Shown here piece by piece: positions 5,984 through 62,178 of a stretch of 64,000 bases of DNA. The stretch is taken from positions 62,001 through 126,000 of the forward strand of contig KZ538017.1 of assembly GCA_000934665.2 (NCBI GenBank), read 5' to 3'. A program made the translations under genes and the position numbers. Origin of the DNA: Catajapyx aquilonaris (lineage: Eukaryota). The notes under the pieces are model-generated. The model ran no database searches. It was not told the DNA's origin and saw only the letters and a list, made by a program, of their open reading frames with translations. Position 1 is the stretch's first letter. Each line of letters opens with the position of its first letter.

Positions 5984-6794
5984 TTATTCATCCTGAAACT
6001 GGAGTCCTCCCCTGGCCTTGTCCGCTATTGGTTGTGGGGCAGGGGACGCGAAGGGCCTCCTTCGGGACAGGTCGAGGTCCTCGGCCCTGATGATGTAGCC
6101 AGTGTCCACTCCGTTGAACTGGGTTCGAACCTCGGCCTGTCCGGTCTGCAGGTTCAGCTGGGGACCGTTGCCGATCGGCTCAACTTCCTCGCTGTTTCGG
6201 GAAGAGACATAATTATAGTGAACCGGTTCCGGACCTGGCCCAAAGTGTTCGTACCTGACCACCCGGTATCCGTTCTCGTCCGCCTCGTAGTGGACGGTCC
6301 TCCTGAAGAATCCGTCCGAGTACGAGTACTGTCCCACAACCTTCCCTTCTTCCCTGGACTCCTGCCTGGTGTGCTGGTTGTCCATGATGCCGTCCGCCAC
6401 ATTCGACGTGAACCGGTACTTGGCGTTCCTGTTCTGCTCCTGGATCAGACGAAGTTCCTCCTCCTCGTCGGACAACCGCCCTCCTTGCTGCTGGCACGAC
6501 GACCACGACACCAGTGCAACCAGAAGAACTCCGACTAACTGCAAAAGGATTAAAGGCTTTGAGGCACGTCCCTGCCAGGCACGGGCGGTCGCATTTGGGC
6601 GCTTGTTGTGGGTTGTGAACGAGCGTTATTGTGGCTTTGCCAACCCTCGTATACATGCGATTAAATTGATTCCAATGCGACCATGCAATTCGTGTCTTAA
6701 TTAACGAGGCAATGCAGGGCAGTGCAGTACTTTCCCTTGGCAGTGATGCTTGCGCACTCACCGAGCATGAAATTGAGGCGACGCCTCTCTTCAT
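5984..6794 (-). CDS. Secreted cuticle protein with Rebers-Riddiford-like chitin-binding domain
   Basis: Exons 6794-6762 (MKRGVASISCS, donor GTGAGT), 6538-6255, 6191-5984. Hydrophobic signal peptide LVGVLLVALVSWSSC, followed by the R&R-like motif YRFTSNV...RQESREEGKVVGQYSYSDGFFRRTVHYEADENGYRVV. The predicted 63-nt intron 6254-6192 (GTACGA...AACAG) is in frame and has no stop. AATAAA overlaps the stop codon. Confidence 0.88.
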
Positions 6795-10952: not shown

Positions 10953-13900
10953 TTATGACTTAGTGCACGGAGGGGAAACCATGTCCCTGTGGACAGTGAC
11001 TGGACACTCCAGCTGCTGTCCCCCTTGGATGTCCGACTGATCTGGTGGGACATCGGCTGGTCCCACCCGTCTGCTGTCCCGTTTGAACGCCCTCCTCAGG
11101 GTGTCCAGACCGGTCCGTTTCTTGTCCACTTCCTGCATCTCCGCAACCAGAACCTAACACAAATCTCGATTAGTTGCAAAAATGACCAAACAACATACGG
11201 CTGACCTCTTGGTCGTTTTCCTCCTCAGTTTCTTGCAACGATTGTGTCCAGCTTCTTCGGCTCCGGACGTCCGGTGCGGACAATGTCGAGGCTGGTCCTG
11301 ACGGTCCGCTGCTGACGTCGTTGGACAATCTGGAGCCCATTTGGACGTACCGAGAGGTCATAGAGTCAGAGCCCACCATCTTGTTTAAGAGAGAACAATA
11401 TTTTTGCCGTCACATAGCCGTCGTTACGTAGACGTTACGTACCTTGATGACAGCCTGGAGTAACTTAGGTGTACCAGGCCTACTTCTGATGACCACGTTG
11501 GCCTCTGCATCGTCTTCTGCTTCTTCCTTGGCCTTGTTCGCAGCATCACGCTCCTTCTGAAGCCTAATCAATTTCCTGCAGAAACAACAGCGAAAGTACA
11601 GCTTTCACAAGCAATTATACATGGGTCTGCAGTATCGATACAAAATTTAAGGAGAAAATGTCCCATATATTGTTGTTATCGTTCACCTTGCTTTCACACA
11701 CTACCATACATATTTTCATTTATTGTCAATTAGAAGTACGCTATATTTTATTTATTTTTATTTTATTTACCCCGTGGTAGAGCACTGCTCTTTTCGGGGG
11801 GGGGGGGTATGTAGTAGTATGCTATATACTGTAGCCTATATGAGGTGATAATAAATCGACCGGACCTGGCCTTTTTCTCCAGTAGTTTCTGAGCTTCCGG
11901 GTAGTCCTTGGTGGTCTCGTACAGATCGGTTTTGCTGAGAACGAAGAGGTTGGTGAATCCCTTCGACCTGGATGGATTAATAATCGTGCCAAATTAGCAA
12001 ATTCCTGGGGAATGGGGGGTTAAGTAGCTGGCGTTTTCTCCCTTGCAAATTTGATCCAGATCGAGCCAGACCCAGATCTGACTTTTCAATTTCCCCACCC
12101 CAAAAAGCGGCTAATTAATTCCCATCCTCTCGGCCCCCGAACGGTTTTCACCCAACTTCCACAGAGATCATACTCCCTTTTTAAGAAGAAAAAAAAGAAG
12201 TCGTGGAGCGATTCCAGATAATGTACAGGGTGTCCCGGTTGTTAACCCATCTTCCGGAAAGAGTAAGGTCATGGCATCTGGAGAAGCCAAGGAACTTCCA
12301 TAATTAATGTCATTAAACGTCAAACCCTCTGCCTTTTGCCAGCGGAATTGCCGCTAATTGCAGAGGAGGGCAATAGATTATAGCGCAGGAAGTTCAGCGC
12401 TACAGTTATCGTGATTTCTGTTTATTTGGCGCAAAAAAAAACGTGCCTGACGTCAGCAGTCCGGCGGTTCCCTCCGCCAATGGCCAGCAGGCTTATCTCC
12501 CCGAAGACGCTGCCCTCTGTCAGCTGGGCCAGCACAATGCTTCCGTCTGGTCCTCCGACAACCTCCAGGATACCCATCTTCACGATGTACATCTCCTTCC
12601 CAACCTCTCCCTGTAAAGCACGGGGAACAAAACCACTCGCGCCATCTACCCGCCAACTTCCTAAACTAACAGAAGCGCTCCCTTAGTATAGATGCGCGGA
12701 TTAGTCACCTTCTTGCATATGAAGTCTCCTGGAAGGAACGTGACTGGCTCCAGCTTCAGGACCAGGTCGCGGATCATCCCTTGCTCGCAGTCCTGGAACA
12801 GCTGGACTTTGGACAGGGTGTCCACGTGCACGCTCAGGGCCACGTCCTGATGCAGCTTCCGGGGAAGGAGGTTCAGAATCGCGTTTTCGTCTGGAAACGG
12901 CGATCATTGTTGTGCCGATTATAGTTAACACGGAGGGTGACATACCCACTGCCGTCAGATGTGAGAAGACCGTAACTCAATGTCCACTTCCCCTTGCGGC
13001 GAGAAAAAAAGTAGTGGTACCAAAAGCACCCAACAGGTGGAGTTGGGGTGCCGTTCCTTTTCCCCCCTTCCCCCAACGCCACCTCTTGGATGCTTTCGGT
13101 AACACTTGCTTTCTTTTCTCGCCGCAAGGGAAGTGGATATTGAGTTACGGTCCTCTCACATCTGACGGCAGCCCACCGAGGGTCTTGTGCTGCTGCCAGG
13201 TGTAGGTGAACCAGGTCTTGACCTTATCCTGGAGGTCGTGGGGCACATGAAGGCGCTCCAGGTAACCGATTGTCTGGTACAGTACGGCACGGTACTCGGT
13301 CTGGGAACGAGCAGCGGTCGCCACGATGTCCCGAATCTGTCCGGTGGGGGGGGGGGGGGGGNGGGGGGGGGGGTGTCATACGCTCCGTAATAATTATTGA
13401 ATTCGCGTGTACTCACCTGCCCTAGCAGTATCGCAAACCCAAAGACACCGAGGAGCCAACTGATGGTCATGAAGACGTACTCGGGTTCGTTCTCGGGCTT
13501 CGGATTCTTGCCGATTGATGTGGCCGTCTTTGTCGCAAAGTACACGCATCGGATGTACCTGCCAGACACAAAAGGTGTACGATTTGAGCCTCAGTCGAGT
13601 GATCGAGGAGCTGCGTGGCACATGTGACGTACGCGTGTCCCTGTCCATCGAATGTCCATCCGTTGGACCCGATGCCTTCCCATGTTGAGAATCCGTAGTA
13701 CGCACACGCGTTGAGGTGTATCATGTACAGCATGTACAGGACAGTCCTCACAATGCGGACACCGAACGGTACCGCCGCAACCTTGTCGAACCGGTCGTAA
13801 AACTCCCAGTACGTATGAATCTGTAAGGATTGAACAATTAGATCTGGGATTATACGTCAGTATATAAACCGCCAGAAAACCTTGCAAATCCGGGGCAGTC

Positions 13901-16386
13901 TCAGGAGCGGATCGACTCGACCCAGTTGCAAGTAGAAGAGGTCAAGGGGCAGCAGGGACACCAGATCCATCTGAAATTTTGTTTAGAGAGTGGACCCATC
14001 AGTCAACAATAAGGGTGCCTCAATTTGGCCTTAGCTACAAATCACGATAACTGTAGCGCTGGTGGATCAGACCTTGAACTGCATCATGCTGAAGTAGTGT
14101 CTCCGGGTGACCTTTGGGTCGGATATCCACGACCCGGAAGGGCTGAGGAACTTGATCCGATGCTTGAAGTAGAGGACGTCCAGTAGGTAGACAGCGTCGC
14201 AGAAGTAGTCCAGACACAGCCAGACGCGCAAGTTGTCCGGAGTCTGGTAGGGAAACACCCTCCGGAACGGTATGGCCCAACAGTTGTACAGGAAGCACAC
14301 GGCGGTCAGGAACAGCCAGGAGATGTACACGTAGCCTGAAAAAGATCCGGTTATTTCCAACCCTGCGGAAAATTGTCCCACGTAGTACCATATCCCTCAC
14401 GTAGATGACACGCGAGATCAGGGAGCATATATTACATAAGAGGCGCAAACATTCAATTTTCGCGTCTCTCTATTTGGGGCGTTGCCAAGGCTGGCGGCCA
14501 TTTTGAAGTGTGTGCAACGCCAACGAGGTATAAATAGGGCACAGGCAAAAATAGGGTCCGCCATCTTTGATTCGCGCGTGTTCTTGCCGTGTAGTTGCCA
14601 TGGCAGCCAAAACCATCAAAGATGGCGGACCCTATTTTTGCCTGTGCCCCATATTTATACCTCGTTGGCGTCGCACACACTTCAAAATGGCCCCCAACTT
14701 GGCAACAGCCCCAAACAGGGAGACGCGAACATCAAAGGCGCCGACAGAAGTTTGCGCCTCTTATGTAGCATATGCTCCCTGGCGAGATGATGACTCATTC
14801 CGGACTGACAGAGGCACAACAAGCCAATTCTATAATTACTGTTTGGTTCCAGGACTCTCCAGGCGCACCGCTTGACCACTAGTTTCTTGACCTTGACCCA
14901 GGCGGAGTCACCTTCCTGCCACCAGCCCAGGCTGGAGGAGCTGCCTTCCGGTGACTTTGGTATCAGGGAACTCAGTCGGTGACGTAGAGGGGGAGGGTCC
15001 ACCTGGCCACCTGTTGAAAGGTCATGGAGGTCAACATCGTGTCACGTCATACACACTCACAATAGTGAAGCTCAAAATAGCCTCCTGGGGAAAGATGGCC
15101 TGTCTTGGAGGCTATTTTGAGCTTCACTTTTGTGCACACCTTGTTGGCTACTTCCGGTAGACGGCGTTGGGGGTTGCGCGATCCTGTCTTTGATTCGTTG
15201 TGCTCTGGCGGAAAAAGCAGCCACCAGAGTGCGCATGCGGTTCTGCAGAAGGGCGCTGCTACTGCTGCCAACACTGAAAAAAATAAACACTCGTTAAAAC
15301 AAATGGTGCACACTGGTCTTTCGGTCGTTTTGGGGTCTCCAACTGCAACGACACCGTTATGAACCCAACGCTGATCTGTGTATGGCCAAACCTGATGGCG
15401 CTGTCTTCACTGACGGCCGTCGACGAGCGACGACGACGCCACATCGTGCGTCGTGCTGCTGCCGAAAACGTCGTCGACACCCCGCTGGTGTCGTCCACCG
15501 AAATACTCGGCACCTGGTAACCCTCTTCGACTGACAGCCGCATCCGAAGTTCTGCAGAGAGGAATATCTCTATATGGTAAAGCGAACCCGGTCCACTTTC
15601 ACCAGCGACCGTCTGAACGCTTCCGTTTTAATACGACTCGGTTCTAGACCGGGTCCACGTTTCTGGCGACAGTGTGACCTTTCTTACGTGTGGGCGGACG
15701 CTCTTCGCTTTCGCTGCTGTTAGTGGACGTGTATCCTCCTGGTCCGGTGGTGTCGTGAGGCAACGGGCCTGAGCTGCTGGAAGGAGACGTGGCCAATCCA
15801 TCCTCGTTGCTGTGTTGGTAGGCCTGGTTGTCTACCCCGCAGGATAAGTTGGTTTCGACAAAGGACGAACCCTCGTCTGCTGATTGAAACGGGTTGCTTT
15901 CAGCGCTACACTGCCGTCAGATGTGAGAAGACCGTAACTCAATGTCCACTTCCCCTTGCGGCGAGAAAAAAAGCAGTGGTACCAAAAGCACCCAACAGGT
16001 GGAGTTGGGGTGCCGTTCCTTTTCCCCCCCTTCCCCCAACGCCACCTCTTGGATGCTTTCGGTAACACTTGCTTTCTTTTCTCGCCGCAAGGGAAGTGGA
16101 TATTGAGTTACGGTCCTCTCACATCTGACGGCAGTACAGTTATCGTGACTTGGGAGTCCCCCTCACCACCTGTGGTTCCGAAGAGTGAAGTCAGCTCGGC
16201 CTTGAAGGTGTTGTTGGTTGTCACCGAGTGGCGGAGCAGAGCTTCGGAGGCCAGCGAGGAGAGGGAGCTGCGAAGGGACTGCGCCGGTGTGGCTGCGCAT
16301 GAGATGTGCCAGGAGCGCTCGTCGTCGCTCGACGAGTCCTCTGGCGGTGCAGCGGACAACACTTCCCACCGCATACTGCTCCCCAT
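10953..16386 (-). CDS. CngB: Cyclic nucleotide-gated cation channel beta subunit (CngB/TAX-2/CNGB-like), about 891 aa, 16 coding exons
   Basis: Phase-consistent exons: 16386-16167, 15879-15688, 15551-15392, 15273-15140, 15010-14840, 14335-14073, 13970-13881, 13820-13633, 13558-13417, 13336-13177, 12890-12709, 12610-12447, 11967-11866, 11575-11443, 11379-11206, 11153-10953. Motifs: S1 [33 protein letters not shown]4 [10 protein letters not shown]; pore [16 protein letters not shown], which lacks the alpha-subunit pore Glu and is typical of invertebrate beta subunits; [39 protein letters not shown]; post-[12 protein letters not shown]. The start is uncertain: an acceptor near 16396 suggests further 5' exons. 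Confidence 0.93.
12949..13171. mobile_element. 223-bp MITE with CTGCCG termini and 4-bp TSD (CCCA), in CngB intron 10; Sola-like (tentative)
   Basis: About 58-bp TIRs starting CTGCCGTCAGATGTGAGA(A/G)GACCGTAACTCAAT(G/A)TCCACTTCCC. TSD CCCA at 12945-12948 and 13172-13175. The superfamily is inferred only from TSD length and termini. Confidence 0.9.
14419..14781. mobile_element. 363-bp palindromic MITE, CAGGGAGC family, copy 2, 7-bp TSD, in CngB intron 5
   Basis: TIRs CAGGGAGCATAT..TACATAAGAGGCGCAAAC / GTTTGCGCCTCTTATGTAGCATATGCTCCCTG plus long internal inverted arms. TSD GCGAGAT at 14412-14418 and 14782-14788. CAGGG ends with a 7-bp TSD suggest P- or hAT-like origin (inference). Confidence 0.9.
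15064..15128. repeat. Mini hairpin element (perfect 22-bp inverted repeat) in CngB intron 4
   Basis: AGTGAAGCTCAAAATAGCCTCC (15064-15085) / GGAGGCTATTTTGAGCTTCACT (15107-15128). A related copy lies at 43591-43814. Confidence 0.8.
15911..16134. mobile_element. 224-bp MITE with CTGCCG termini and 4-bp TSD (TACA), in CngB intron 1
   Basis: By eye differs from 12949-13171 by about one substitution and one C-run indel. TSD TACA at 15907-15910 and 16135-16138. Confidence 0.9.
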
Positions 16387-20924: not shown

Positions 20925-23900
20925 ATGGAACGTGTTGAGATGCACTGGAACGAGTCTGTCCCATTTGACTGGACACCCGACGAGAACGGGTCGTCCCAAA
21001 AGAATGTCCCAGCATTCGAAGAGGACGAGTACCTCTTCGACCGGACGGACGTCAGGGCCATCTTCATCTCCCTGTACACCGTCGTCTTCTGCTGTTGCTT
21101 CTTCGGTGAGTGTATCTTGTTACTATAAACCAAGTTGTCAAGACTTGCATCGCATTACGTTGCGTGCTGTTTCGACAACTAAAGGAGCAAGGATGGCAGG
21201 CGTGGGATTAACTGGAAGGCTTTGGAAGCTTCCAGGATTGGCAAGCACGGGTTTGCACTTTGCTGAATTGCAAAGCCAACTTCGGGGGCGGTACAGCGAC
21301 GAAACATTTCATCTTGCTGCCAAAAATGGGGGGGTATGTCACAAGAAACTCCAGTCGTGCGTTACTGCACGTGACGCACTTTTAAAGGAGATCAGGGGGG
21401 AAAAAATATCGTGCTAAAATTAGTCGCCTTCAGTACCTTAAACATGCCTTTAATTAAAGCTCTAGAACCAGATTTAAATCCCCGCTTCATTGTTTCGCGG
21501 CTTGGGTAACAATGAGGGTTGAATAATATCAGCGCCATTTCTCCAGACTCGAAGGTGACATGAAGGTCAGTTATTAGGCAGAGGCAACGAACTTGGTCGC
21601 ATTTATAGCCATCAAGCGTTTTATAAAAATGTGCAAAAAAACAAACTGGTTGCTGGAGCAAACAAATTCGCAAACTTTTTTTTGGACTGCGTTGGTATAT
21701 ATACATCTGCATGACTTGATGGGTGTTGCAGTCGACGTGTAGATCGTTTCCATTATGAGGAGGCGCATATTGCGAGGCACGGTCTGTTGGCCAAAATGGG
21801 ATTAGCGAGTTGCGGGATTTTCGCAATTATGCCGATTTTTTTTAAAGTGCCAGATGAGCTGTGTGGGAGTGGTTTGGAAAACGTGAGAGTATGAAACATG
21901 TAGAAGCCACTTACACCTGCTCGTGTCACGATTTATATAGGCCCTGTGCTTATATACATTGTGCAAAGTTTTCTTTATGTCGTGTGGGATTGAACAGAGC
22001 TCATCAAAAATTATGCGCTTGGAAAGTTCGCGAATTTTTTTTTCCTGCACACTTTTGCCTTAAAGGGCTGCTGCTTTTGGGTCCATCCTGGGAGTTGGAA
22101 GGACCAAAAAAAAAAAAAAACGGAGGGGCTTTGACACGAAGTTGTTTTTGGCAGATTAGGAGCAAACACTCTTTCAAGCGTTTTTGCAACCAGGTTAAAT
22201 CGAGCATACTTTGGGATTAATTAACCCCCCGGGTTCCTTTAGCGAAATCCTGGCCTTTAATTACCTTAATCCCGTATATAGCTGGGGGACTCTGCAGTTA
22301 TTTCTCGCCCAATATTGTAGTCCAGCTTGTCCAGCAGAGAGTCCCATTTTATTGCCTTCTTTATTTGGCACCTTCCTGTGTTTGCAAAGGCCCAGAGAGG
22401 CGCACATTTGTTTGGGGGGNGGGTGGGGGGGGGGGACGAAGCTTTTAGTGCCCCCCCTTCGGCCACACAGAATCGACCGGGCCCACCCTTACGCTCTTGA
22501 CAAAATTGTCAAAATCTTTGCCGAGAAAAAAGAGTCGACGCGCCTTATTTTCTGAACCAGAAAGTGTGTTTTTATCGCGAGAAAAACTGCGCCATTTTGA
22601 TGCCTGGAAGTGACGTCAGAAGTGTGGCTGCGACGTCACAGTTGCCAGATGGATAAACGAAAAATTGTGTTCAATCTGGCACCAGTTGCTTTGTATCCCG
22701 GTTAGGAACGGTTCCGGATTTCCTGGGCGTTTAATGGGCCCAATCTTTGCAAGTGTTGGCCCAATGACCCTAAGGGTCATCCGAAGTGCCAACAGGAGGA
22801 GTCCAGATGGTGCAGGGCCATTTGGACCAGAAGTGGAATCGATAGCTCAATTTAATGGGCTGGCCCCATGAGAGTTATGCTTTTCCCTGTGGACCTTCCA
22901 AGCATATTCTGGACCAATGGTGGCCAACAAATCACTGGAAAATGTACTATACAAGTTAGTACAGTCTATAAATAAGAGCTGGTTGAAGAAGTAATATACG
23001 CGTGTGTTTCATTCTCGCCTTTTGCAAGCTGTAGTTGTCACCTTCCCGTCACACGCAACCGGAAGCCATTACTTTTATCGCGTTTTCTCCCGTTTCGGAG
23101 AGGTTCATTTTATCGGGCCTGTAATTAATGCTTTCTAATTTAGTCAGTTCCACTTATTACTATACGAACGCGTATGAATCCAGATTTCCATTGAAGATAC
23201 TGGTGAACACCTTGACAAAAACACTGCTCCAGACGCTTACAAATCTTCCATCATGTATACCGCAGGGGGGCAATATCAGAAGACTCTCATCATCATTTTT
23301 CCCTTCAAGTCCTCCACTTGACTTCCGAACAGATCGCCCGTCGCCTCAACAATGGTCTGTGTGTGGCCACCACGGAGCATTTACGATCCAATGTTGACCA
23401 CTCTAATAACAAATGGAGAATCATTTAATGCCCTTTGTGGGCCTCTGCTGGGTTGACTCTCATCTTGCCTATGCCTTCTTTTTTTATACTGTTTATGGGC
23501 CATCATTCTTCTGGTCTCATTAAAGCAGGCAACAATGTTCCCTGCTATGGAATTGGGAGGGCATCATTCTTTCTTGGAGTGTCGTCGTTCACAGGCAGCA
23601 CATTTCTTGGGGGCATGTTTCACCCATGAGAGTTGAATTATTCACACCCGACCTTCCCAGTGATTGGAGCCGTATAAATGCGCGCAATGTCAGTCTTGCA
23701 TAGCGTTGTTGACAGGTGCAACTTGCATAATCCACATGGGGATTGTCGCTGTTTTGATTGCAGTAATTCCCCCTCCCCCTTTTTTAAAATTCAACGGCTT
23801 TCTAATTATCTCTAGGGAATCCGGCACTGATTGATCGAGCCATGTACTGCGATGTTTTCAGGCAACCTTTTGGTGATGCTGGTGGTGATGCTGCACTGGC

Positions 23901-26662
23901 GGATGCGATCCATCACCAACTTCTTCCTGGCCAACCTGGCCTTTGCAGACTTCTGCGTCGGAATATTCTGCGTCTATCAGAACCTCAGCATCTATCTAGC
24001 CACCAGGTGAGTAGTTGTTTCTTATATATGAAACACCCTGTATTAGACTTCTTCCCCTGCTGTGTTTCGACTTCCTTCCCGAGTGATTGCCTGCCATTCC
24101 TTCGCCTCAGGGGGGGAAGCAGCATTGTTGGGCCGATAATCGATAGTAACTTTCCAAGGGGTTGTTGATTCATCGCCTGTCAGCAGATTGATTCGAGATC
24201 TAAGCCAACATTATTTGCGCCTCCCAAATGCAGAGAAATTGGCGGTGGTGAAGTGACGCTACTCGATCGGAAAATTGACATCCCTGCTGTCGATGCGAGG
24301 TCACCTCAGACCTTTTAAAGAGGGGGTCTTCATTATGTATATAGGAAACACCCAGCTACCATCACCTTTGTGAGTCGCATTACCTTTGATTGACCTGCTG
24401 CTCCCTTGGTGAGTGTGAGGTGTTGAATTGATCAATCAGAAAAAAAAGGAAACCGCTTCAGAAGTATTGAATATCTGCCGTTTGGGCCAACAAAAGTGAC
24501 GAGAAGTTGATCCTCTCTTTAAGCAAACGATCTCTGGTTGTATCGAGAAAACCGGCTCCTAATTGCTCCGAGTCTATTCACACCTATTTTCCTTTGATCT
24601 TTTGATCCTTTCGCCGCACATGCCCCCCTCAAAATATGGCGTATAAAGGAAGTTTGGTGCCAGCCTCTTTCACATGTTCCCGTGAGACTCTCATAAGTCA
24701 TCTGCTCACTACAATGCGGGGCCTGACTCTAAGGCTTATGTCATGGATCGCGCAAATTGCCTAATGGACCAACCAACGGAGGGAACAGAAATGTGTTGAC
24801 AACTTTTGCGAATTTGGGCTCGGTTTTGGATGTGTGATGAAGCAAACTTTCAATGGCACTGGGGTTTGCTCGTAAACACGTGTGTACACTGTACAGTATA
24901 ATAATGAGGTCTGGGAGACGGTACTTGCTCAAAATATGGCCTGCAGTTATGGCTGTGTCGTGTATTACATCCAGGAGGATTACGGATTACGACCATTGCA
25001 CCATTTGACGTCATTCACTATGGGAAGATAAAAGTAATACCGGATTTCCTGCCAGAGGAAATTTTTTTCCGGGAGATGAAATTCTGCAGTAAGCTTCATG
25101 CGAATTCTGCTGGGACTCGGGCAAATTGAGAAGGAAAAAAAAACATCGGCTGACATTATACATCCGGATAAGGTCGTTGTAACAGGCTGTAACGTGATAA
25201 GTCCTTTCCTTTGTATTTGGAATCGATGAAGTAGACCCCTCCGAGCTCTATTGATACTGGCGGACTATAAATAGCACTCAGACTACAGCTTTAGGCGAGT
25301 GTAGAAGCGGCGGAAGAAAGGCAAATATTTAATCTCTTTCAGGCTGAGATTACAACCGTAACGCCGGTTTATTGCGTTGTCTCTATCGCAAATCCTCCGC
25401 ATTTGTTCGACCGAGCCAGTGACATTAAAAATGGGATACATATTTTTTCATATACGGAGTGATTATGACACATGGGCGGACCAATTTGGGCAGGATAATC
25501 CGGGGGACATGTTTTCCAATCTAATTGCCGTCATTTCCGTTTTTTTCCTACTCGTATCACACCGATTATTATTGCCCCGCTGCAAATTGCGATTCATGAA
25601 CTGTTTGTGGAAATGTGTGGAATCCCGAGGGAATCCTCATCATTTTTTCCCCCCACTCTAAACGGTTCCAGCTGGGTCCTGGGCGAGTTCCTGTGCAAGG
25701 TGTACCACTTCATCCACCACCTGAGCTACACCGCTTCGGTGTTCATCCTGGTGGCCCTGTGCGTGGAGAGGTACCTGGCCATAATCCACCCGATGAGGTG
25801 CAAGCAGCTGCTGACCATGACCCGGCTGAAGGTGGTGATAGTCCTGGTGTGGTCCACCAGCGCCGTCTACTCGGCCCCTAGGCTCTACTGGTTCCAGACC
25901 ATCAGGGTGTCCCTCTCCAACGGCACCAGCGAGGTCCTCTGCGTCCCGCTCAGGCTCAAGTACGACTCCAGGAGCTTCGACGTCGCCTCCTTCCTCCTCC
26001 TCTACCTCATCCCTCTGGCCGTCATCCTCGTCCTCTACTCCAGGATCGGGCTCGCTCTCTGGAGGAGCTCCAGGAGACCCACCGCCGAGGAAAGGAACCA
26101 ACAACACCACCACCACTACCAACAGGTGCGTGATTCGTAACTATTGAAGACGCGGTCGACACGTGGTCTCTCACTCTTTCCAGGGCTTGAAGACGCCGAT
26201 GTCGCTGGAGGGAAGCATACAACAGTGAGTGCAAATATGGTGGGTGTCCAGCCCCTGGCTGACCTCCGTTGCTTTCGCAGGCAGCCGACCCGCTGCTGCA
26301 ACAACAATGGGAGCGGCAACAATGCCCTGGCCGCCCGGCGCCGGGTGATCCGCATGCTGGTGGCGGTGGTGGTGACCTTCGCGGTGTGCAACCTCCCTTA
26401 CCACGCCCGCAAGATGTGGCAGCACTGGTCCCCCTCGTACGACGGGACCTCGGCCTTCTCCACCCTCCTGACCCCGGTGACCTTCCTGGTCATGTACTCC
26501 AACTCGGGCATCAACCCTGTCCTCTACGCCTTCATGTCCAGGAACTTCAGGAGGAGCATCCGCGACCTCCTCTGCTGCCGGATCACCAGGGCCAACTCGG
26601 CCCTCTTCAACAACAGGGATCACTCCTCCACCAGGGTCACCACCGTCAAGTCCTCTTCGTGA
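20925..26662 (+). CDS. TrissinR: Trissin receptor-like class A GPCR, copy A (short ICL3), about 400 aa, 5 exons
   Basis: Exons 20925-21105, 23862-24006, 25672-26125, 26184-26224, 26281-26662, all GT-AG and phase-consistent. FDRTDVRAIFISLYTVVFCCCFFGNLLV...RSITNFFLANLAFADFCVGIFCVYQNLSIYL...LSYTASVFILVALCVERY closely matches insect trissin receptors as I recall them. TM6 FAVCNLPYHARKMW; TM7 YSNSGINPVLY. Confidence 0.9.
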
Positions 26663-26677
26663 AGCAGACGTGTACCA

Positions 26678-26683
26678 AATAAA
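26678..26683 (+). promoter_or_regulatory. Candidate polyadenylation signal of receptor copy A
   Basis: AATAAA 15 nt after the stop codon; a second AATAAA lies near 26693. Confidence 0.45.
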
Positions 26684-29429
26684 CCTGTGTATAATAAAAC
26701 GCAAGGGGGCCAACAGTCTTCGCATTTTTCCCTGGAGACTGGCAGGTGCAGAAAGTGCTGGGGTTATTATCATTGAACTAGGACGTCCATTTTTGCAGGC
26801 CGAGTAATGAGTTTGGTAGGTGCGACGCAATTTTTCTACAAAACTCATTTCCTGTGTGACGCTTCCTCCCCCCCAGATTGGGTTCATTANCCGAGATTGG
26901 GTTCATTAAGCATGTATGTCATTAATTATTAAGCCCTGACATTTTTGGAGAAGGCCTCGATTTATCCGCGAGGACGTCCTTAATAAGCACGTCTTGACAC
27001 CTTCCGATACTCGCACATTTTTCTCTCGGCAAAAATTGCGCTTGCCAACATACTGTCGAGTGAGATTCAAAAAAATATTTTCATTTCCGCGCGCGATCTA
27101 GGAATATTCCTTATCTTGTCTGGCCAAGCAAAAACAATGGGATGTGAAGATTGGCAAAAAAATTCGCGCTTTTGTTCCATCTGTGGTATATCGGAAGCCG
27201 ATCCGATAAAGGCGACCGGATATGGATTCCCGATTGGTTTGGACCGAAAAGGAGACAAATGTCGCGTATATTTATCGACCGGGCCAGTTATGCCCGCTCT
27301 CTATTACATGTTATCAAACTGTAGATTCGACTAAAAGCAGTCTCGAATTTATGTGCTGTCAGGTAACCAATAACCAAAGGGGCCCATTGAACGCCGGTGA
27401 TTCCGCCTGCGATGGACTTTGAATGGCCCATCTTCCCTGCTACAAGTGCTTGTTAGTGCCCCCGAAATTTTCCCATGGTATAGCTCGAATGGGGTTGCTA
27501 ATGACGCCCCCGGAAAAGGATTTTCCTCTCAGTCAAGACCCGGGTCCCTCTCTTTGGATGCAAATGAGGCTCTTCCGGTTTGCTTTCTGTTCACACACGT
27601 TCCTCTCTCGAAGCGCAATATTCTGGAAAGGAGGACTGATTTTCCTTGCCAATCTCCGATTGAAGTGGTTTATTTGCAAATGAAGCGTGTCTATTGGCAA
27701 TTGTACCTGGAAATTGGAAATGGTATGTATAGAATAGAATGTGTAATCGATTTTTGTAAGAATAAGTCTGAATAAAAGTCTCATGGACGTCGTCTCTCCT
27801 GCTGCATTTGGTGGAATAATCTAGTGCAGAGAACACTATTCCCTGGCTCCTCCAGTCAATATTGGCAAGTGTAATATTCGTCGCTTTGATGCAATCTGTG
27901 AGCCAGAGGCATGCTTTTACATTGGAGGCAGGGAAGGAGGCTCGGGATTGACTCCGATCACCTCGGGCTGCAACTCTGAATAATGGAATCAGGCCATAGG
28001 AGCACAGAGAACAAAAGGGACATGGTTGCAACAAGCTGGCCCCGGCACAAAGGTTGTCTCTCCCCGACATATATTTGGCATCTAGCCCACCTAGCTCGAA
28101 TATAAAAATATAAAAAAATCTCTATGTCAGTATATAACTCGAATCCCGAAGAGAGACGCTTGTGGTGTGCAGCTCCTATCAAAAGGTCGTCAAATGGGAG
28201 TCTCAATGGGGCAGATCAGAGGGGAATGCAGGTCGTGTGAACCAATCTGTGGACTCCTTACAAAATAATTTTGAGAAGAAATCAGAAAATGGAGGAACAC
28301 CAAAGGCTGGGTGAGTTTGAATCTAAGGTGGCCACCATCATTCCAGATGTTAATATAGGCCAGGCCTAGATGAGATAACCTTTATATGCCATTTTCAGAC
28401 AATTACTCGCTGACAGTGCAATACATCTGTAAAATAAAATTGGGAGTACTTGCAAAATATTATAGCAAAAATTAGTTGCTGTTACATTTTTATACGAAAG
28501 TATACGAAACAAAGGTAGGCGGACAAATGTCCGAAAAACTGTAACTCATGGCAGTAAGTGTTAGGGGGTGGGTGTTCATTGGTAGAGAGGAAACTTGGCA
28601 GCACTGGTAAACAAATCATGATAAAAGTCAATGCGAAAGATTCAGTTCATGTACATTTTTTGCGTGGATGAGACAGTAAAATGAGACCGGATAGCACTAA
28701 AAATCCAATACTACGAGACATCAGGTGGATACATGCGGGAAGATTTCTTACATCGGGGCTTACCACTAAAATTGATCCGATTAATTGCAATATTGCGTAT
28801 GATATTAATGAGGTGGTGAGGTACTGTACAAATGGAGCATCTCTTCGAGTACAATAATTTGAATGAGACATTTTAAGCTGGTTTACCTGCTTCCACCCGA
28901 AGTTAAGAAATGAATATTTTACGGATTTATTCATGCTGTGTGCTTGGGAAATTACTCCGTTACATTACAGTATTACAACTTGACCAAAAGTTTGTCGTAT
29001 GTTCAAGGCAGGTTGAATCATCACTAATTATTAAGGAGAAGGTATCTCTAACGGGCCATTAATTAATCAGTGGAGTGGTGGGGGATGTGTCGCTGCTTGT
29101 CCTCACAGCTGCCTCTTTTGACCAAAAAAAAATGCGCATTGTTACACCAGCATTGTTGTCTCACCTGATCCCCCGATAGCCTTCCATTCTTGTGGTCTCA
29201 CAGCTTACAACGGCTCTCATGCGCCCTCTCCATTGTGTCCATTTTCAAAGCATCGGGTCAAACAATGTCCAGCACCCAGTATCGGCCAGCATTGTTTCCT
29301 GTGGATGTCCCACACCTCATTGTCATTGGTGCTTACATTATTTTTCATTTAAAACGGTGGTTTTCACAGGTAATTATAGTTTAAATTTATCACCGAATGA
29401 GGCGATGGACATCATTCGTACCTATACAC

Positions 29430-29435
29430 TTTATT
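29430..29435 (-). promoter_or_regulatory. Candidate polyadenylation signal of receptor copy B
   Basis: Minus-strand AATAAA about 85 nt after the stop codon. Confidence 0.4.
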
Positions 29436-29521
29436 AGCAAAGAAATGAGCGGAGTCGAATGATTGGTCCCCAACAGTTCGGTTAATTACTGGCTGTCCGA
29501 TTGACACCGGCTGCGCAGAGG

Positions 29522-32500
29522 TCACGACGCAGAGGACTTGACGGTGGTGACCCTGGTGGAGGAGTGATCCCTGTTGTTGAAGAGGGCCGAGTTGGCCCTG
29601 GTGATCCGGCAGCAGAGGAGGTCGCGGATGCTCCTCCTGAAGTTCCTGGACATGAAGGCGTAGAGGACAGGGTTGATGCCCGAGTTGGAGTACATGACCA
29701 GGAAGGTCACCGGGGTCAGGAGGGTGGAGAAGGCCGAGGTCCCGTCGTACGAGGGGGACCAGTGCTGCCACATCTTGCGGGCGTGGTAAGGGAGGTTGCA
29801 CACCGCGAAGGTCACCACCACCGCCACCAGCATCCGGATCACCCGGCGACGGGCGGCCAGGGCATTGTTGCCGCTCCCATTGTTGTTGCAGCAGCGGGTC
29901 GGCTGCCTGCGAAAGCAAACGGAGGTCAGCCAGGGGCTGGACGCACCTAACCTATATACGCACTTGTGAATGGAAGGAGACCTGCTGTGTGTTCCGTTAC
30001 AAGTTGCGGCGCTTCCGTCGATCGTGTCCGTTATCAGGACGTGTTCGGCGTCCCCCTGAACGAGGTCAGAGGTCACCAGGGAGTCGTCCTGCTGCTTCGG
30101 ACGCTTCTTCCGACGGTACATGACGACGCGCAGGAGACGCTTCTTCTTGGCGGCAGGGACGGAAGTCAGACTGACGCTGCTGCCTTCCACCGATGGCGTC
30201 TTCAAGCCCTGGAAAGAGTGACCACGTGTCGACCGCGTCTTCAATGGTTACGAAATACGCACCTGTTGGTAGTGGTGGTGGTGTTGTTGGTTCCCTTCCT
30301 GCGTGGGTCTCCTGGAGCTCCTCCAGAGAGCGAGCCCGATCCTGGAGTAGAGGACGAGGATGACGGCCAGAGGGATGAGGTAGAGGAGGAGGAAGGAGGC
30401 GACGTCGAAGCTCCTGGAGTCGTACTTGAGCCTGAGCGGGACGCAGAGGACCTCGCTGGTGCCGTTGGAGAGGGACACCCTGATGGTCTGGAACCAGTAG
30501 AGCCTAGGGGCCGAGTAGACGGCGCTGGTGGACCACACCAGGACTATCACCACCTTCAGCCGGGTCATGGTCAGCAGCTGCTTGCACCTCATCGGGTGGA
30601 TTATGGCCAGGTACCTCTCCACGCACAGGGCCACCAGGATGAACACCGAAGCGGTGTAGCTCAGGTGGTGGATGAAGTGGTACACCTTGCACAGGAACTC
30701 GCCCAGGACCCAGCTGAGAAATACACATCAGCCAAGTCTTAATCTCAGCTCATTCTGCAGAAAATCCGTGCGAAAACGTCGCTCTGAGAAAATCCTGTTT
30801 CGCACACATCAAGGTAGCCCCTCCGTTGATTGGCCTATATTCCCCCACCTAAAAAAAAGCGCTTTTGCTGGACTTAATTGCTTTTCATTTCAGTGCAAGG
30901 CTTAACGGTCACCTTGACCACCGCAGTACATGCTGGGGCTTAACCGCTAATTGAGGTCCATAAAAACACATGTTATGCCCCGCTCTCGCAGCCTTGCACC
31001 GCAAATGAAAAAAAAAAACTTAGCGTGTGTAATTAGTGCAAAGAGTTGTGTAGTTAATCTAACCTCCATTTTTCGCATTATCAAGCCTTGCTGTGTGTAA
31101 TACAAACGTGCCCAGGCCAATCACAACTTTCTTTTGGTCTGAAGCCCACCGACGACGAGTGTGAGTCTCCAGGGGACAGTCCTTTGATCTTTTGGAGGAA
31201 AACGGTCCAAAGTATCTGGTCCAGATTGGATCATCCGATTGGAACACTCCAGCCAATAGACCAAGTTGAAGAAAACGTCCTTTTAGTGTGTGGCCGTGAC
31301 TAGCTTGTTCTCATGGGTATATAGCCTGGTTGTGGGAATGAGGCATAATGCCCGTGGTGCGCACAAAGGAATAATAGAGAAGCTGCACACGAGAGCAACT
31401 AGAGCTCAACCAGATCTCCCCCACAAAAAAGGAAGGCTCCAGGGAGACGGACAGCCGGGATCAACTTTTCCTCCATTTTGTTGGCCCTTATTATCGCCCC
31501 GTCCTTTTGATGGAGATCAAGCAAAGGAAAGGCTGGAAAGGAATAAAAGCGATAGGAGAAGGATATTGGGATAGTCCTTAGGCTATATGACCCAACCGGG
31601 AGGCATCTGCGGCCTGGACCCATTTGCATCTCAGCCTCAAACTGCAAAAAGGGTTGGGAATAAGGGAATTGTCCTAAACGACTTCAGTGGGGTTGCTGGA
31701 GAACACACACCTGACACGGGGAAATTAAACGCCTTACACAATCATAATAACTAATTAAGAACGAAAAAAAAATAATTACAGGAATTATGTATTTTTTGAA
31801 TAAGGATTTGTGTCGCTGTGTGTAAAAGGTGTCGATTCTTTTGATCGGGCCTTTTCTTGGTTGGCGACGCAAACAGTGTTGCTAATCAATCAAATAAGAG
31901 ACGGGTGTGCAACCGGAACATTATCGATTATCGGCTGAGAGTCGATCAATCGCAAAGCCGGATCTAATCACAGGGTGTTTTATAGTCCTGAGACTCACCT
32001 GGTGGCTAGATAGATGCTGAGGTTCTGATAGACGCAGAATATTCCGACGCAGAAGTCTGCAAAGGCCAGGTTGGCCAGGAAGAAGTTGGTGATGGATCGC
32101 ATCCGCCAGTGCAGCATCACCACCAGCATCACCAAAAGGTTGCCTGAAAACATAACCCAAACGAACTGTCAGAATCGGCAGATATGAATTTTGCAAACAG
32201 ATGCCCGGTCGTCGGTTTTGCAAGCTGCGACATGTAAACACTGCTGTTGACGTCACCTTTCATTGTCGCCAGTTTCGACCCTTCTGAATAAGTCAAAAGA
32301 GTCTGTCGATTGTATTGTGCCGGTAATTAACTTGGCGACACGTAATCCCACCAGTTGTCAGTAGAACAATCGGCAATTAGACCATTTTTTCTCCAGAATG
32401 AAGTTCGCATTTTGTGATTACGTAAGAGATGACGACGTAACCGTCGCTGCCAGGATCTGCACGTGCTAAAATCCGCGAATATGTGCTGCAGATCCATTAC

Positions 32501-33145
32501 CCAGAGAGGGTATATCTGCATCTGGCAACAAAGACTCTTCTCACGGCTCATTATTCATCCCCTTCCATTTGAACATTGGCTTAAATCCGACGCCCACGGC
32601 TCATCGCTCCAATTCTATCTCTCTTTTTTCCCCCCCATCCTTTGTGCACAGCATATGTAGCAAGTGGCAAATCCAATTTCGGTTGCAGCAGACAATAATG
32701 GGCGGGTTAGTAATGGGGAAGCTGACTGCAACACTTTTGAAGACTCAAAGTCGCGTTTCACGAGCCCCCATCAAACCCATGCAGACTGCAATTATGGGAC
32801 CTGCCTCTTGCCCATTATTGTTCCCCAAATGTCCCAAAGCGCTGGTGAAAATATTCGCCACTACCAGACACTTTATTACATCAGCAGTGTGTGTTTTTTA
32901 TGACGCCCGGGCAACACGGCGCATTGTTGGAGAGTTTACTCACCAAAGAAGCAAGAGCAGAAGACGACTGTGTACAGGGAGATGAAGATGGCCCTTATGT
33001 CCGTCCGGTCGAACAGGTACTCGTCCTCTTCGAATCTAGTGGACAGCGTCCCATTAGCGGGTGTCCAGTCCACTCCGGACACATCAGGTATGCTGGACAG
33101 ATTCCAGTCGACACTCCAGGGCTTATCCAACTCAACCATGACCAT
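29522..33145 (-). CDS. TrissinR: Trissin receptor-like class A GPCR, copy B (long ICL3), about 475 aa, 5 coding exons
   Basis: Exons 33145-32944, 32143-31999, 30713-30263, 30208-29964, 29906-29522, with the same intron positions and phases as copy A and the same 7TM motifs. A probable acceptor (TTTCCAG) at 33199 implies an upstream non-coding exon. Confidence 0.9.
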
Positions 33146-34404: not shown

Positions 34405-37400
34405 GCAGGGGTACAGGATTAAAGTACAGGGTGGGAGGGAAGGAAAAGTAACCTGCGCAGTTGAGTCAAACCCAAAAGCAGAAGAGTCGCATGCGGACTG
34501 GCATCATTCGCTCCAACAACCATTCGCAGCAATGAAATTAATATTGGCAAAGTACAGTACCACATCCCTCGCATGGATGGCGCGTGATGACTCACCGCGG
34601 ACAAACATAGCTGCTGTTTTGGTTCGATGAAAGTCTAATCGCTCACAGGGAATGAGTGACTGGTGGTCACCCATACCAGGCTGACCCCGACATTCATCGC
34701 TGCTGGTGGGGGGCGATTATTCTTATTGTTATTATCTGTTGAGTTGTATGATGGCTAATTAGGGGGGCTGGAAAGAGGGGGTGACAACGCAAATCCATCA
34801 TCGTGACAACCCGGGCTCCGCGATTATTAATTTTTATATGCCAAACAATCGGGGTTGCCAGCATGCAGCACAACAATCAATAAAATAGGCCATAACCTTC
34901 ACATTATTTTATTAAAGCACTCGTTTCCATAGGCAAAAATGAGTAATGCGACAGTAAAATGTGCCGAGAGCATCCATTTTTGTCGTCGCTGGCTAAAGTA
35001 CTAATGAAAACGTGTGCTGCTGATTATCTTTCGCAATTAAATTTCGCAAGATTAAATTCCGCCTCCCACACCCCTCGAAAGCCATGCTTTTTCCTGGTGT
35101 CGATCGGGGGGGTCCGTTGACTTGTGCAAAACAACGCTTTTGTGTAATTTCCGGTGCGCTAATTGAAAAGAGGGTCTTTCACTCTCAGGTGCTCCAGGTA
35201 GCGACAATATATGTAGGCTCGAGTGGGCGTCGCCATATGACGTCCATCTGCAAAAAATAAAGTCTAATAATAAAAAAAGCTTCTTATCCTGACTATTCGG
35301 AGCAACCATCCCACCTCTTCTGCGCAACTGGTTGCCTTGTTAACAGGATGTGCCTCACATTACTCTTCAAGATAGTGCGCATCAGGTATTCTCTTTGTGC
35401 TCAGTAAGTACAGTTGATTTAAAAGTGGAGTGCTCTCACTGTATTATGCTCTTTAAGTACAGTGCGACCTCATCATCACCTGATGCCTGGAGCGATGGAT
35501 ATAATAACTACGCCTCAGGACTTAATAACTCATGCTCATCATCACATTTAGACACTCAAAGAGTCGCGGTGATATTGACGGACCGGAAGTAAGACAATTG
35601 GGGGGGGGGGGNNNNNNNNNNNNNNNNTTCTCCGTTTTTATTGCGGATGATTTGAATAATTCATCCGATTTATCATTTTGCAAACTGAAATGACGCCTGA
35701 TTTTGCTCCAGGGCACAACAGGGTGGAGCCCCCACCCCAGTTATTTTTTACGGTTAGAGTGACACACATTAGTGCAAAAATATTTTGTGCAGAAAAATTG
35801 CGGTTTTAATGTGGGGCGTTGCCGATGTCTCTGCTCTTTTTGAGTAATTAATCTGATTCCGCGAAAAGGTTCAAATGAAACCATCTCTTTTCATCCCTCC
35901 CACTCTCTCTCTTTTTTTTTGCATGCGAAAAGCACATCAAACAGAGTTGGTCTCGAAGGGTGATTGGATTAACCTTCGACAAACAAGAGAGGGTTTTGCC
36001 TGGTGTGCGTCGCAGGGAAATAAGCTCTTCATTGCAACCTTGTTTGCGAAAAAAACCCCATCTCAAACGACTTTGCTTCAATCATTCTGGGACAATGTTT
36101 CCAAGATTTTATTGCGATTTTCTTAAGACAAATTGAGTCGTTTTGTGCTGCCAATTTATCCAGCTACATTTGGCGGATAATCTCTTTCATTAGCTGACAT
36201 CATCAGCTGCTGGATGCAATATCAGTCATCTTTGAAACCAATTAAGCGGAGAAAAATGTCTTAAAATATTTCTGCCGATATTAAATCCGAATCGTGCAGA
36301 CTTTCAATTTGCAAAATACATATATATTTTTTTGAAGCTCGGGCTACATCCTCCCCTTTTTCGAGATGCCAGGTTTGGCAATTTATCCCCACTCATTTTG
36401 GTAGTATAAGCAGCTGCCTGTTTCTGGTACGTTGGAGTTCAATTCGCGAATTATTTCGCAACCAGTCCTTTTCCTATGTCCTCGTGAAGGACTAATGAGG
36501 CGTGGATAAGCAGGATCATAACCGGCCCGAGAATGATGCGCAGTTGTTCGCTCCAGCAACCATTTTATTCCCTACTTGCAAAAACCATGTTTGCAATATA
36601 GAGCGTGTGGGCATATATATTTTTAGCGCGATTTGATTTATTTCTCATTTAAAAAGCTCGGCCGCCATCTTTGGCAAAGAGGGTAAAAGGAGGCGTTATT
36701 GTTGCGGTAAACAAAGAAACTCACTTTGGCGGAGGCGATTTGCGAAAATTAATGGGCGGGAGATGCGGATAATGGCTTTTTGGCAAAAAGGGGGGACGGG
36801 GGGGTCGGATGGAAGGCTATTCCAGAGGCAAAAGGTGGATTGAAAGGGGCCAAAAAGAGAGGAGAAAACTTAACGAGCAAGTTTTGGGAATGAAAAGAGA
36901 GAGGCGATAATTAGCGGAGACAAAATTGCACTTTACTTCAAGGACGCGACGAGGTTTTTGCCAAATTTTAAGAGCCCAAACACAAGGTGTCTGCAGCTGA
37001 GAGAACTCTCATTACTTTTCTAAACAGGATTCTGTCTGATTACATTCCCTCCAATTGTCGCTAGTCTACAACCTATTAAAGGAGCAAGCTCTACTAATTT
37101 AAGTGACGAACTAGCAGCAGTTATTAGCTGCTAATGGTCAGGGTATCCAACAGATTGCTTTGTCATCTAATTACACTTCTTGTTATCCTCGCTCGTCATG
37201 CATCGACAAATGACCATGAAAAGCCCTCATCCAAACAAACCAGTTCTTCGAGAGCCCCCAAAAAGTAATAACGGGCCATTAGCAGTAAACAAGACAGCTG
37301 GAAAGAGCTCTTCTGGCTCAACGGAGATGACATGCCTGGCAAGAATCGCCACAAAACCATTCATTACTTTCTGCCCGTATATGACAGGGAGAGAAATTAT

Positions 37401-51371: not shown

Positions 51372-51542
51372 NNNNNNNNNNNNNNNNNNNNNNNNNNNNN
51401 NNNNNNNNNNNNNNNNNNNNNNNNNNNNNNNNNNNNNNNNNNNNNNNNNNNNNNNNNNNNNNNNNNNNNNNNNNNNNNNNNNNNNNNNNNNNNNNNNNNN
51501 NNNNNNNNNNNNNNNNNNNNNNNNNNNNNNNNNNNNNNNNNN
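51372..51542. other. Assembly gap between poly-C and poly-G tracts
   Basis: 171 Ns. A smaller gap at 35612-35627 also follows poly-G. Confidence 0.95.
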
Positions 51543-61843: not shown

Positions 61844-62178
61844 CACATAATAGGCGCAAACTTCTGTCTGCGCCTTTGATGTCCGCGTCTCTCTGTTTGG
61901 GGCCGTTGCCAGGGTTGGCGGCCATTTTGAAGTGTGTGCAACGCCAACGAGGTATAAATAGAGTACAGGCAAAAATAGGGTCCGCCATCTTTGATGGTTT
62001 TGGCGGTCATGGCAACTACACGGCAAGAACACGCGCGAATCAAAGATGGCGGACCCTATTTTTGCCTGTACCCTATTTACACCTCGTTGGCGTTCCCCAC
62101 ACTTCCAAATGGCAGCCCCAAACAGAGAGACGCGGAAATCGAATGTTTGCGCCTCTTATATGTAGTGTAGGCTCCCTG
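61844..62178. mobile_element. Palindromic MITE, CAGGGAGC family, copy 3, 7-bp TSD, left TIR partly deleted
   Basis: TSD CCGCGGA at 61837-61843 and 62179-62185. The body matches 14419-14781; the right end is ...GCTCCCTG. Confidence 0.85.

Follow-up and report, generated by a model that had tools for sequence, protein, structure and literature searches.

The closest described case to the locus reported here is the Drosophila pair Amy-p and Amy-d, palindromic paralogs whose concerted evolution is confined to the coding sequence, according to the lines devoted to them in PMC3924832 (citing Hickey 1991; Shibata & Yamazaki 1995). The same source mentions the inverted duplicates of Drosophila Hsp70 as a case of continuing ectopic gene conversion with shared silent polymorphisms, and in the mouse the exon 1 of the T-cell receptor genes C-beta 1 and C-beta 2 is presented as homogenised by correction within a two-member family (PMC2188480). 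In this study, we analysed a window of 64,000 nucleotides (nt) of Catajapyx aquilonaris (assembly GCA_000934665.2, contig KZ538017.1, positions 62,001 to 126,000 of the forward strand; coordinates below count from the first letter of this window). It holds two intact five-exon genes for putative trissin-receptor-like G-protein-coupled receptors (GPCRs), lying tail to tail: copy A on the plus strand (20925-26662) and copy B on the minus strand (33145-29522). As far as the cited accounts describe Amy-p and Amy-d, the likeness lies in linked paralogs of opposite orientation, with homogenised coding sequence and independent flanks; unlike that pair, the present genes have five exons, their homogenised islands are split by kilobase introns that do not participate, the N-terminus and the third intracellular loop (ICL3) have escaped, and a third copy may be involved. 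The Hsp70 genes share the inverted arrangement, yet are described as intronless and converted over their whole length, whereas the mouse C-beta genes are direct tandem copies in a vertebrate immune locus with one exon concerned, in contrast to the inverted pair and three exon islands found here. The proposed event is of a known kind, of which this locus is an unusually clean multi-exon example. Our literature search returned no paper linking trissin with gene conversion and none on gene conversion restricted to exons of paralogs; among the papers listed for trissin receptors and for their duplication, nothing was on topic, as judged by titles and the starts of abstracts.

Our findings support, with good confidence, a model of an old duplication and, after it, recurrent non-allelic gene conversion that stays within islands of exon homology. 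A repeat search and a blastn comparison of one arm with the reverse complement of the other yielded four collinear inverted blocks (blastn identities):

21005-21111 with 33045-32938, inverted: block 1, 91.7% identity
23852-24012 with 32153-31993, inverted: block 2, 100% identity over 161 nt
25666-26217 with 30720-30178, inverted: block 3, 96.7% identity
26246-26660 with 29942-29527, inverted: block 4, 99.0% identity

No further similarity between the arms was seen in a self-blastn of the whole window (32 non-self pairs listed). Counted base by base, the common 3' half of exon 1 with its adjoining GTGAGT shows 6 mismatches in 98 positions (6 in the 92 exon bases). Exon 2, taken with 10 nt upstream and 6 nt downstream, has 0 differences in 161, and the start of exon 3 has 0 in 413. 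The stretch that begins in the exon 3 tail, takes in intron 3 and ends in the exon 4 head has 6 mismatches and 6 insertion/deletion (indel) events in about 131 nt; within intron 3, 51 positions match, 3 do not, and one indel occurs. Intron 4 ends in 35 nt that contain no mismatch and one 1-nt indel, and exon 5 carries two silent differences, both in Arg codons (26338 and 26353), in 382 nt, besides one 3-nt indel before the last codon. The core blocks amount to 2 mismatches in 991 aligned bases, versus 12 in about 229 for the intermediate blocks, while the remainder is without alignment; the intermediate band, diverged by 6-9%, comprises the 3' half of exon 1 and the stretch of about 131 nt around intron 3 just described.

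Between the two copies of intron 1 no local alignment rose above shuffled sequence (score 16, null maximum 16), and the long introns with both the 5' and 3' flanks gave none above shuffles in five of six flank tests. Two short collinear islands in intron 2 resemble each other: 25 of 30 positions match some 480-510 nt into the intron (24484-24513 vs 31458-31487; 0 of 200 shuffles reach the score), and 20 of 22 match about 20 nt behind exon 2 (around 24027-24048 vs 31962-31984; 1 of 1000 shuffles). These islands may be remnants of the old homology, or conserved splicing or regulatory elements. The first-pass annotation, made by eye from the letters, had described an exon 2 of 145 nt whose identity ends about 10 nt upstream and 6 nt downstream, an exon 3 identical for more than 400 nt, about two silent differences in exon 5, 6 differences in about 90 nt of the shared exon 1 half, very different N-termini, and introns 1 (2756 vs 800 nt) and 2 (1665 vs 1285 nt) that do not align; the counts and intron lengths are all reproduced, the additions being the likeness within the two short introns and the band of intermediate divergence. 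The arm-to-arm alignment that it had proposed contains nothing beyond the four collinear inverted blocks, and the introns do not align at high identity.

This distribution bears on the possibility of a recent whole-gene duplication (silent divergence about 0.01), after which introns, flanks, N-terminus and ICL3 would have been replaced through indels. The large differences in intron length would fit such a history, as would the 41-nt exon 4 of A, which looks like a deletion derivative of its counterpart in B. Against it, neither the long introns (4.4 kb in A, 2.1 kb in B) nor the flanks retain any segment of high identity, the shared exon 1 part and the intron 3 region are diverged by 6-9% rather than by about 0%, and four complete replacements would each need to stop at an exon edge. 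We regard a recent duplication as extremely improbable.

Silent sites separate the parts of the gene in the same manner. Silent and replacement rates (dS and dN) were obtained from Nei-Gojobori counts, the core being defined as exon 2, exon 3 up to the RRPT motif, and exon 5. The core has 3 silent differences in 229.7 sites (dS 0.013, dN 0), the shared part of exon 1 has 4 in 18.7 (dS 0.25, dN 0.029), and the N-terminal codons have 9.5 in 15.7 (dS about 1.2 on a poor alignment, dN 0.59); core and shared exon 1 part differ in silent divergence with Fisher P = 7e-4. The GC content of third codon positions (GC3) is 288/310 (0.93) in the core versus 103/147 in the coding parts private to each copy (Fisher P = 5e-10), an excess compatible with GC-biased conversion. 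The high core GC3 might also be taken to favour purifying selection on the nucleotide sequence itself, through extreme codon bias or an overlapping function and without any exchange. Yet if codons were drawn independently from the gene's own usage, 111 of the 310 core codons would be expected to differ, and the probability of three or fewer, as observed, is 4e-64; therefore codon selection alone cannot yield the identity of the core. In fact, Leu, Val, Ser and Arg each have two or more common codons and still the copies agree, and intronic stretches are identical too. Selection without exchange thus has next to no probability, in line with the earlier argument of the first-pass annotation that purifying selection would not suffice to keep silent sites identical.

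The gene models on which these comparisons rest have GT..AG introns throughout and open reading frames in both copies. The predicted proteins measure 400 amino acids in A and 475 in B, or 469 with an alternative exon 4 donor in B. For that exon the donor GTGCGT at 29963 is preferred because it aligns with the donor of A and is the same as the intron 3 donor; the alternative, GTCTCC, lies 18 nt upstream. The parts are as follows:

20925..21105, plus strand: A exon 1, 181 nt; first 30 codons unlike B, common to B from 21014
21106..23861, plus strand: A intron 1, 2756 nt, GTGAGT..CAG; no alignment to B intron 1
23862..24006, plus strand: A exon 2, 145 nt, the same as B exon 2; identity covers 23852-24012
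24007..25671, plus strand: A intron 2, 1665 nt; resembles B in the two short collinear islands alone
25672..26125, plus strand: A exon 3, 454 nt, transmembrane helices (TM) 3 to 5; first 410 nt as in B, last 44 nt with 1 mismatch and 2 indels
26126..26183, plus strand: A intron 3, 58 nt, GTGCGT..CAG; about 90% like B (3 mismatches, one 4-nt indel); spliced in run X5 (joint 26122/26181, cut +3)
26184..26224, plus strand: A exon 4, 41 nt, short ICL3; aligns with B only at its head and last few bases; both junctions in X5
26225..26280, plus strand: A intron 4, 56 nt; last 35 nt as in B save the 1-nt indel; X5 joint 26224/26281
26281..26662, plus strand: A exon 5 with stop, 382 nt, TM6, TM7 and carboxy-terminal tail (C-tail); identity to B stops at the stop codon
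26663..29521, no strand: spacer between the stop codons, 2859 nt, holding both 3' untranslated regions (UTRs); arms without similarity there; single N at 26890
29522..29906, minus strand: B exon 5 with stop, 385 nt, from comparison with A and the Pfam family 7tm_1
29907..29963, minus strand: B intron 4, 57 nt with the preferred donor; alternatively 75 nt, donor GTCTCC at 29981
29964..30208, minus strand: B exon 4, 245 nt (227 with the other donor), long ICL3 containing a basic cluster; without a Pfam match
30209..30262, minus strand: B intron 3, 54 nt, from alignment with A
30263..30713, minus strand: B exon 3, 451 nt, from alignment with A
30714..31998, minus strand: B intron 2, 1285 nt, from the gene model
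31999..32143, minus strand: B exon 2, 145 nt, the same as A exon 2
32144..32943, minus strand: B intron 1, 800 nt, from the gene model
32944..33145, minus strand: B exon 1, 202 nt, own N-terminus

Five sequencing runs contain the stretch or part of it, and four were compared via re-assembled contigs: X1 to X3, three DNA runs of one 2014 sample, and X5, an RNA-like run from another sample and study. In X5 a spliced contig of 738 nt omits exactly 26126-26183 and 26225-26280, shows 0 differences from A and reaches 26711; it carries A's own exon 4, its two exon 5 states and its 3' UTR. Copy A is transcribed and spliced as modelled, and its sequence is reproduced in a second sample. A further X5 contig (218 nt, depth 2.6) lies in the spacer at 27253-27470; its source may be a separate transcript or an A transcript with a long 3' UTR.

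The homogenisation also reaches somewhat beyond the exons: the two versions of intron 3 agree at about 90%, and the end of intron 4 is near-identical. This concerns the question of template, since breaks in one paralog could be repaired from the spliced RNA or complementary DNA (cDNA) of another, copying exons only. Such transcript-templated homogenisation would account well for a perfect 145-nt exon identity without flanking homology, and for identity that ends 0-10 nt from the exon edge at all four long-intron junctions and at the stop codon, with an overhang that is mostly splice consensus (GTGAGT, CAG). A presumed third copy, discussed below, seems likewise to carry the common exon 3 beside an intron 2 end of its own (loose end at 30723). 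Non-coding DNA has, however, been homogenised as well, namely intron 3, the final 35 nt of intron 4 and the 10 nt before exon 2, which points to a process, and a template, at the DNA level. Moreover, all introns are kept at the same positions in both copies, whereas cDNA-mediated conversion across junctions is expected, from work in yeast, to delete introns. We consider a transcript template quite unlikely.

Under the conversion model, an old duplication would have given rise to two GPCR genes, probably three or even more, that resemble trissin receptors; one pair of them lies tail to tail, 2.9 kb apart. Non-allelic gene conversion would since then have copied one paralog into another, repeatedly, wherever homology sufficed. 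Meanwhile the long introns and flanks, together with the N-terminal coding part and central ICL3, would have diverged past recognition; being unable to pair, they would have trapped the conversion tracts within exon islands, that is, exon 2 on the one hand and exons 3 to 5 with their two short introns on the other. The gene may accordingly be a mosaic of three ages: near-zero divergence in exon 2, over 410 nt of exon 3, and from the end of intron 4 across exon 5; 6-9% in exon 1's 3' half and between the exon 3 tail and the exon 4 head, probably the trace of older or rarer tracts beside non-homologous parts; and saturation everywhere else. Between inverted copies exchange can proceed without deletion, and a crossover would merely flip the 2.9-kb spacer.

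Several points weigh against this model. The identity of exon 2, a mere 145 nt amid kilobases of non-homology, stops exactly at its edges without edge erosion; this is tighter than simple heteroduplex models predict and is not explained well. Two full sequences are too few to fix the donor, the direction or the number of events. The protein collections searched hold no close relative (above about 60% identity), and so none for an exon-wise grouping within species. The GC3 contrast could also be explained by stronger codon selection in conserved segments. The three DNA runs come from one sample, probably the source of the assembly, and contigs drop rare variants. X5 offers no contig on the B-specific parts and is silent on whether B is expressed. 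Finally, at the physical junction of A and B an N stands beside a C run (26890), spanned by no listed contig, and it is therefore the assembly that places the two genes side by side. Run X3 has a loose end of 20 C at this place, and the join of A's 3' UTR to the spacer passes the same N.

That the copies are distinct loci within one genome is seen directly in the reads. In each DNA run, unique contigs from the A introns and from the B introns extend 20-30 nt into the common exons, and one contig per run covers 26891-29615, joining the spacer to B exon 5. A-specific and B-specific contigs have the same full depth as the outer flanks, not half, in the three runs. The interior of exon 3 is assembled as one 382-nt contig at depths of 81.6, 55.6 and 90.4 (X1 to X3), against averages of 32.0, 19.4 and 31.6 for the seven listed unique contigs per run, or 2.55, 2.86 and 2.86 times as much. 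Within this shared contig the three DNA runs have no listed variant. Exon 2 depth is about 3-fold by a rough back-calculation from depth bins.

These data also bear on an assembly artefact, in which collapse, gap filling or polishing would have duplicated a consensus exon, or two haplotypes would have been placed as an inverted pair. N runs and isolated Ns do occur in the window, a usual trait of older scaffolded assemblies, the DNA runs are from 2014 and from one sample, and about 26627-26890 seems to be without a contig in X1 and X2, by arithmetic from the contig tables, although such holes prove nothing. Nevertheless, contigs of three runs take both intron sets into the same exon sequence, at 2.5-2.9 times the depth and with no listed variant, and differences 24-30 nt apart are retained in exon 5 and exon 1, so that paralog differences have not been flattened. 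Copy A recurs exactly in the other sample, haplotypes would share alignable introns and flanks, which these arms do not, and the copy-specific contigs stand at outer-flank rather than half depth. An artefact is thus very improbable. Of the joints proposed by the contigs, that from 21663 to 24885 was set aside as a repeat or chance match (21 letters on the shorter side), and two opposite-strand joints were not readable as direct junctions; for 26083-29875, other runs have loose ends of at least 255 letters at both places.

In the same three runs some contigs at full single-copy depth fit neither of the two copies. The first of them (depths 33.1, 26.4 and 32.2) agrees with exon 3 as far as 26050, differs at 26051 and 26053, and departs from both copies after 26083. 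Another lies in the shared exon 1 part (31.3, 22 and 29.7); it has private letters at 21071 and 21074 and agrees with B at 21080 and 21104. At 21094 it is listed with no deviating letter, and the same would hold for 21051 and 21053 if, as its end distance implies, the contig reaches them. At the loose ends 30723 and 33084 the sequence changes to another intron 2 end and to another N-terminal coding stretch, respectively; the contigs concerned were seen at 21071-21104, 26051-26083, 30723 and 33024-33084. On balance we favour a third locus elsewhere over an allele as the source of these contigs, because the appearance of a heterozygous allele in these data is shown by a half-depth contig next to exon 1 (15.4, X1 only). 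Depth alone is not decisive between two and three copies, a GC-rich B-specific contig standing at 1.1-1.3 times the mean. The third copy, if real, has identical exons 2 and 3 and its own introns, and is itself a mosaic of A and B states in exon 1; the exchange need then not be between the two arms. The first-pass annotation had proposed an old duplication with recent arm-to-arm conversion: the conversion mosaic stands (core dS 0.013 vs unalignable introns), while the exchange may have run arm to arm or by way of the presumed third copy, as donor or recipient. In a more far-reaching and unlikely reading, the edge-exact identity of islands down to 145 nt in a family of at least three receptors, each with a private N-terminus and ICL3, would reflect transcript-guided homogenisation (RNA-templated repair between paralogs that retain their introns), or selection for a shared 'constant' core with variable signalling modules, instead of ordinary DNA heteroduplex conversion. 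The half-depth contig of X1 spans 21104-21179, near the start of A intron 1, with five differences and a 1-nt insertion in about 75 nt; it looks like a divergent allele, which would be in keeping with pooled animals or with high heterozygosity.

Pfam and homologue searches were run exon by exon. Exon 3 of A matches PF00001 (7tm_1) with 98.4 bits (cut-off 30.5, E = 6.3e-28), and exon 5 matches the same family with 44.9 bits in A (E = 1.4e-11) and 44.8 bits in B. Both translations contain the motifs ERY and NPVLY; E/DRY after TM3 and NPxxY in TM7 are defining motifs of the rhodopsin-like GPCR family. In the exon 3 search, 15 of the 24 matches are named trissin receptor or trissin receptor-like, the best at 56-60% identity with E down to 1e-46. 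The named trissin receptors range from E = 1e-46 to 1e-31 (44-60% identity), the first name from another, vertebrate-type family, substance-P receptor-like, follows at E = 5e-10, and two hymenopteran matches bear other automatic names (43-45% identity). A juxtamembrane motif before TM1 and a C-N-L-P motif in TM6 align with named trissin receptors, as does the KR-x-L motif in B's long ICL3 with their ICL3. By closest named relatives, both copies are putative trissin-receptor-like GPCRs; in sequence they resemble the trissin receptor (TrissinR) family of arthropod neuropeptide GPCRs, and no relative closer than about 60% identity was found. A word-based search among longer proteins gave 24 matches in 478 candidates, none above 60% identity, and one among proteins of similar length gave a single match in 42, at 45%; among the at least 150 matches listed by an exhaustive HMMER search, none exceeded 60% over most of the query, with at most 73% over short fragments.

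Apart from the region around ICL3, the A and B proteins have one and the same sequence between the end of TM1 and the C-tail; their N-termini are almost wholly different, each with two N-glycosylation sequons of its own. The pair may thus comprise two receptors with the same ligand pocket and, as predicted from the translations, different coupling or trafficking. If so, they would offer a natural experiment on coupling and trafficking within trissin signalling, a poorly studied neuropeptide system. The paralogs appear days old in their core exons and ancient elsewhere; therefore dating the duplication from coding sequence would mislead, and short-read pipelines may merge the two copies. The three divergence classes within one gene could further serve as a gauge of the minimum homology required for conversion.

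The rest of the window is eukaryotic, arthropod-like DNA of about 42-53% GC. Among 23 long open reading frames (ORFs) outside the two genes, two of them in the spacer, Pfam matched only one, on the minus strand at 5984-6622, with a chitin-binding cuticle-protein domain (PF00379, E = 2.2e-10, GC3 0.72) that supports an arthropod origin; an Rfam scan of the window gave 0 matches. N runs at 35612-35627 (16) and 51372-51542 (171), with five single Ns, are assembly gaps or ambiguous bases. An element of 226 nt occurs twice (12947-13171 and 15909-16134, 99% identity) and is itself about 82% palindromic, and one of 220-350 nt occurs in three places (1-217, 14419-14766 and 61845-62178, about 88% identity); both are probably small foldback transposons or resemble miniature inverted-repeat transposable elements.

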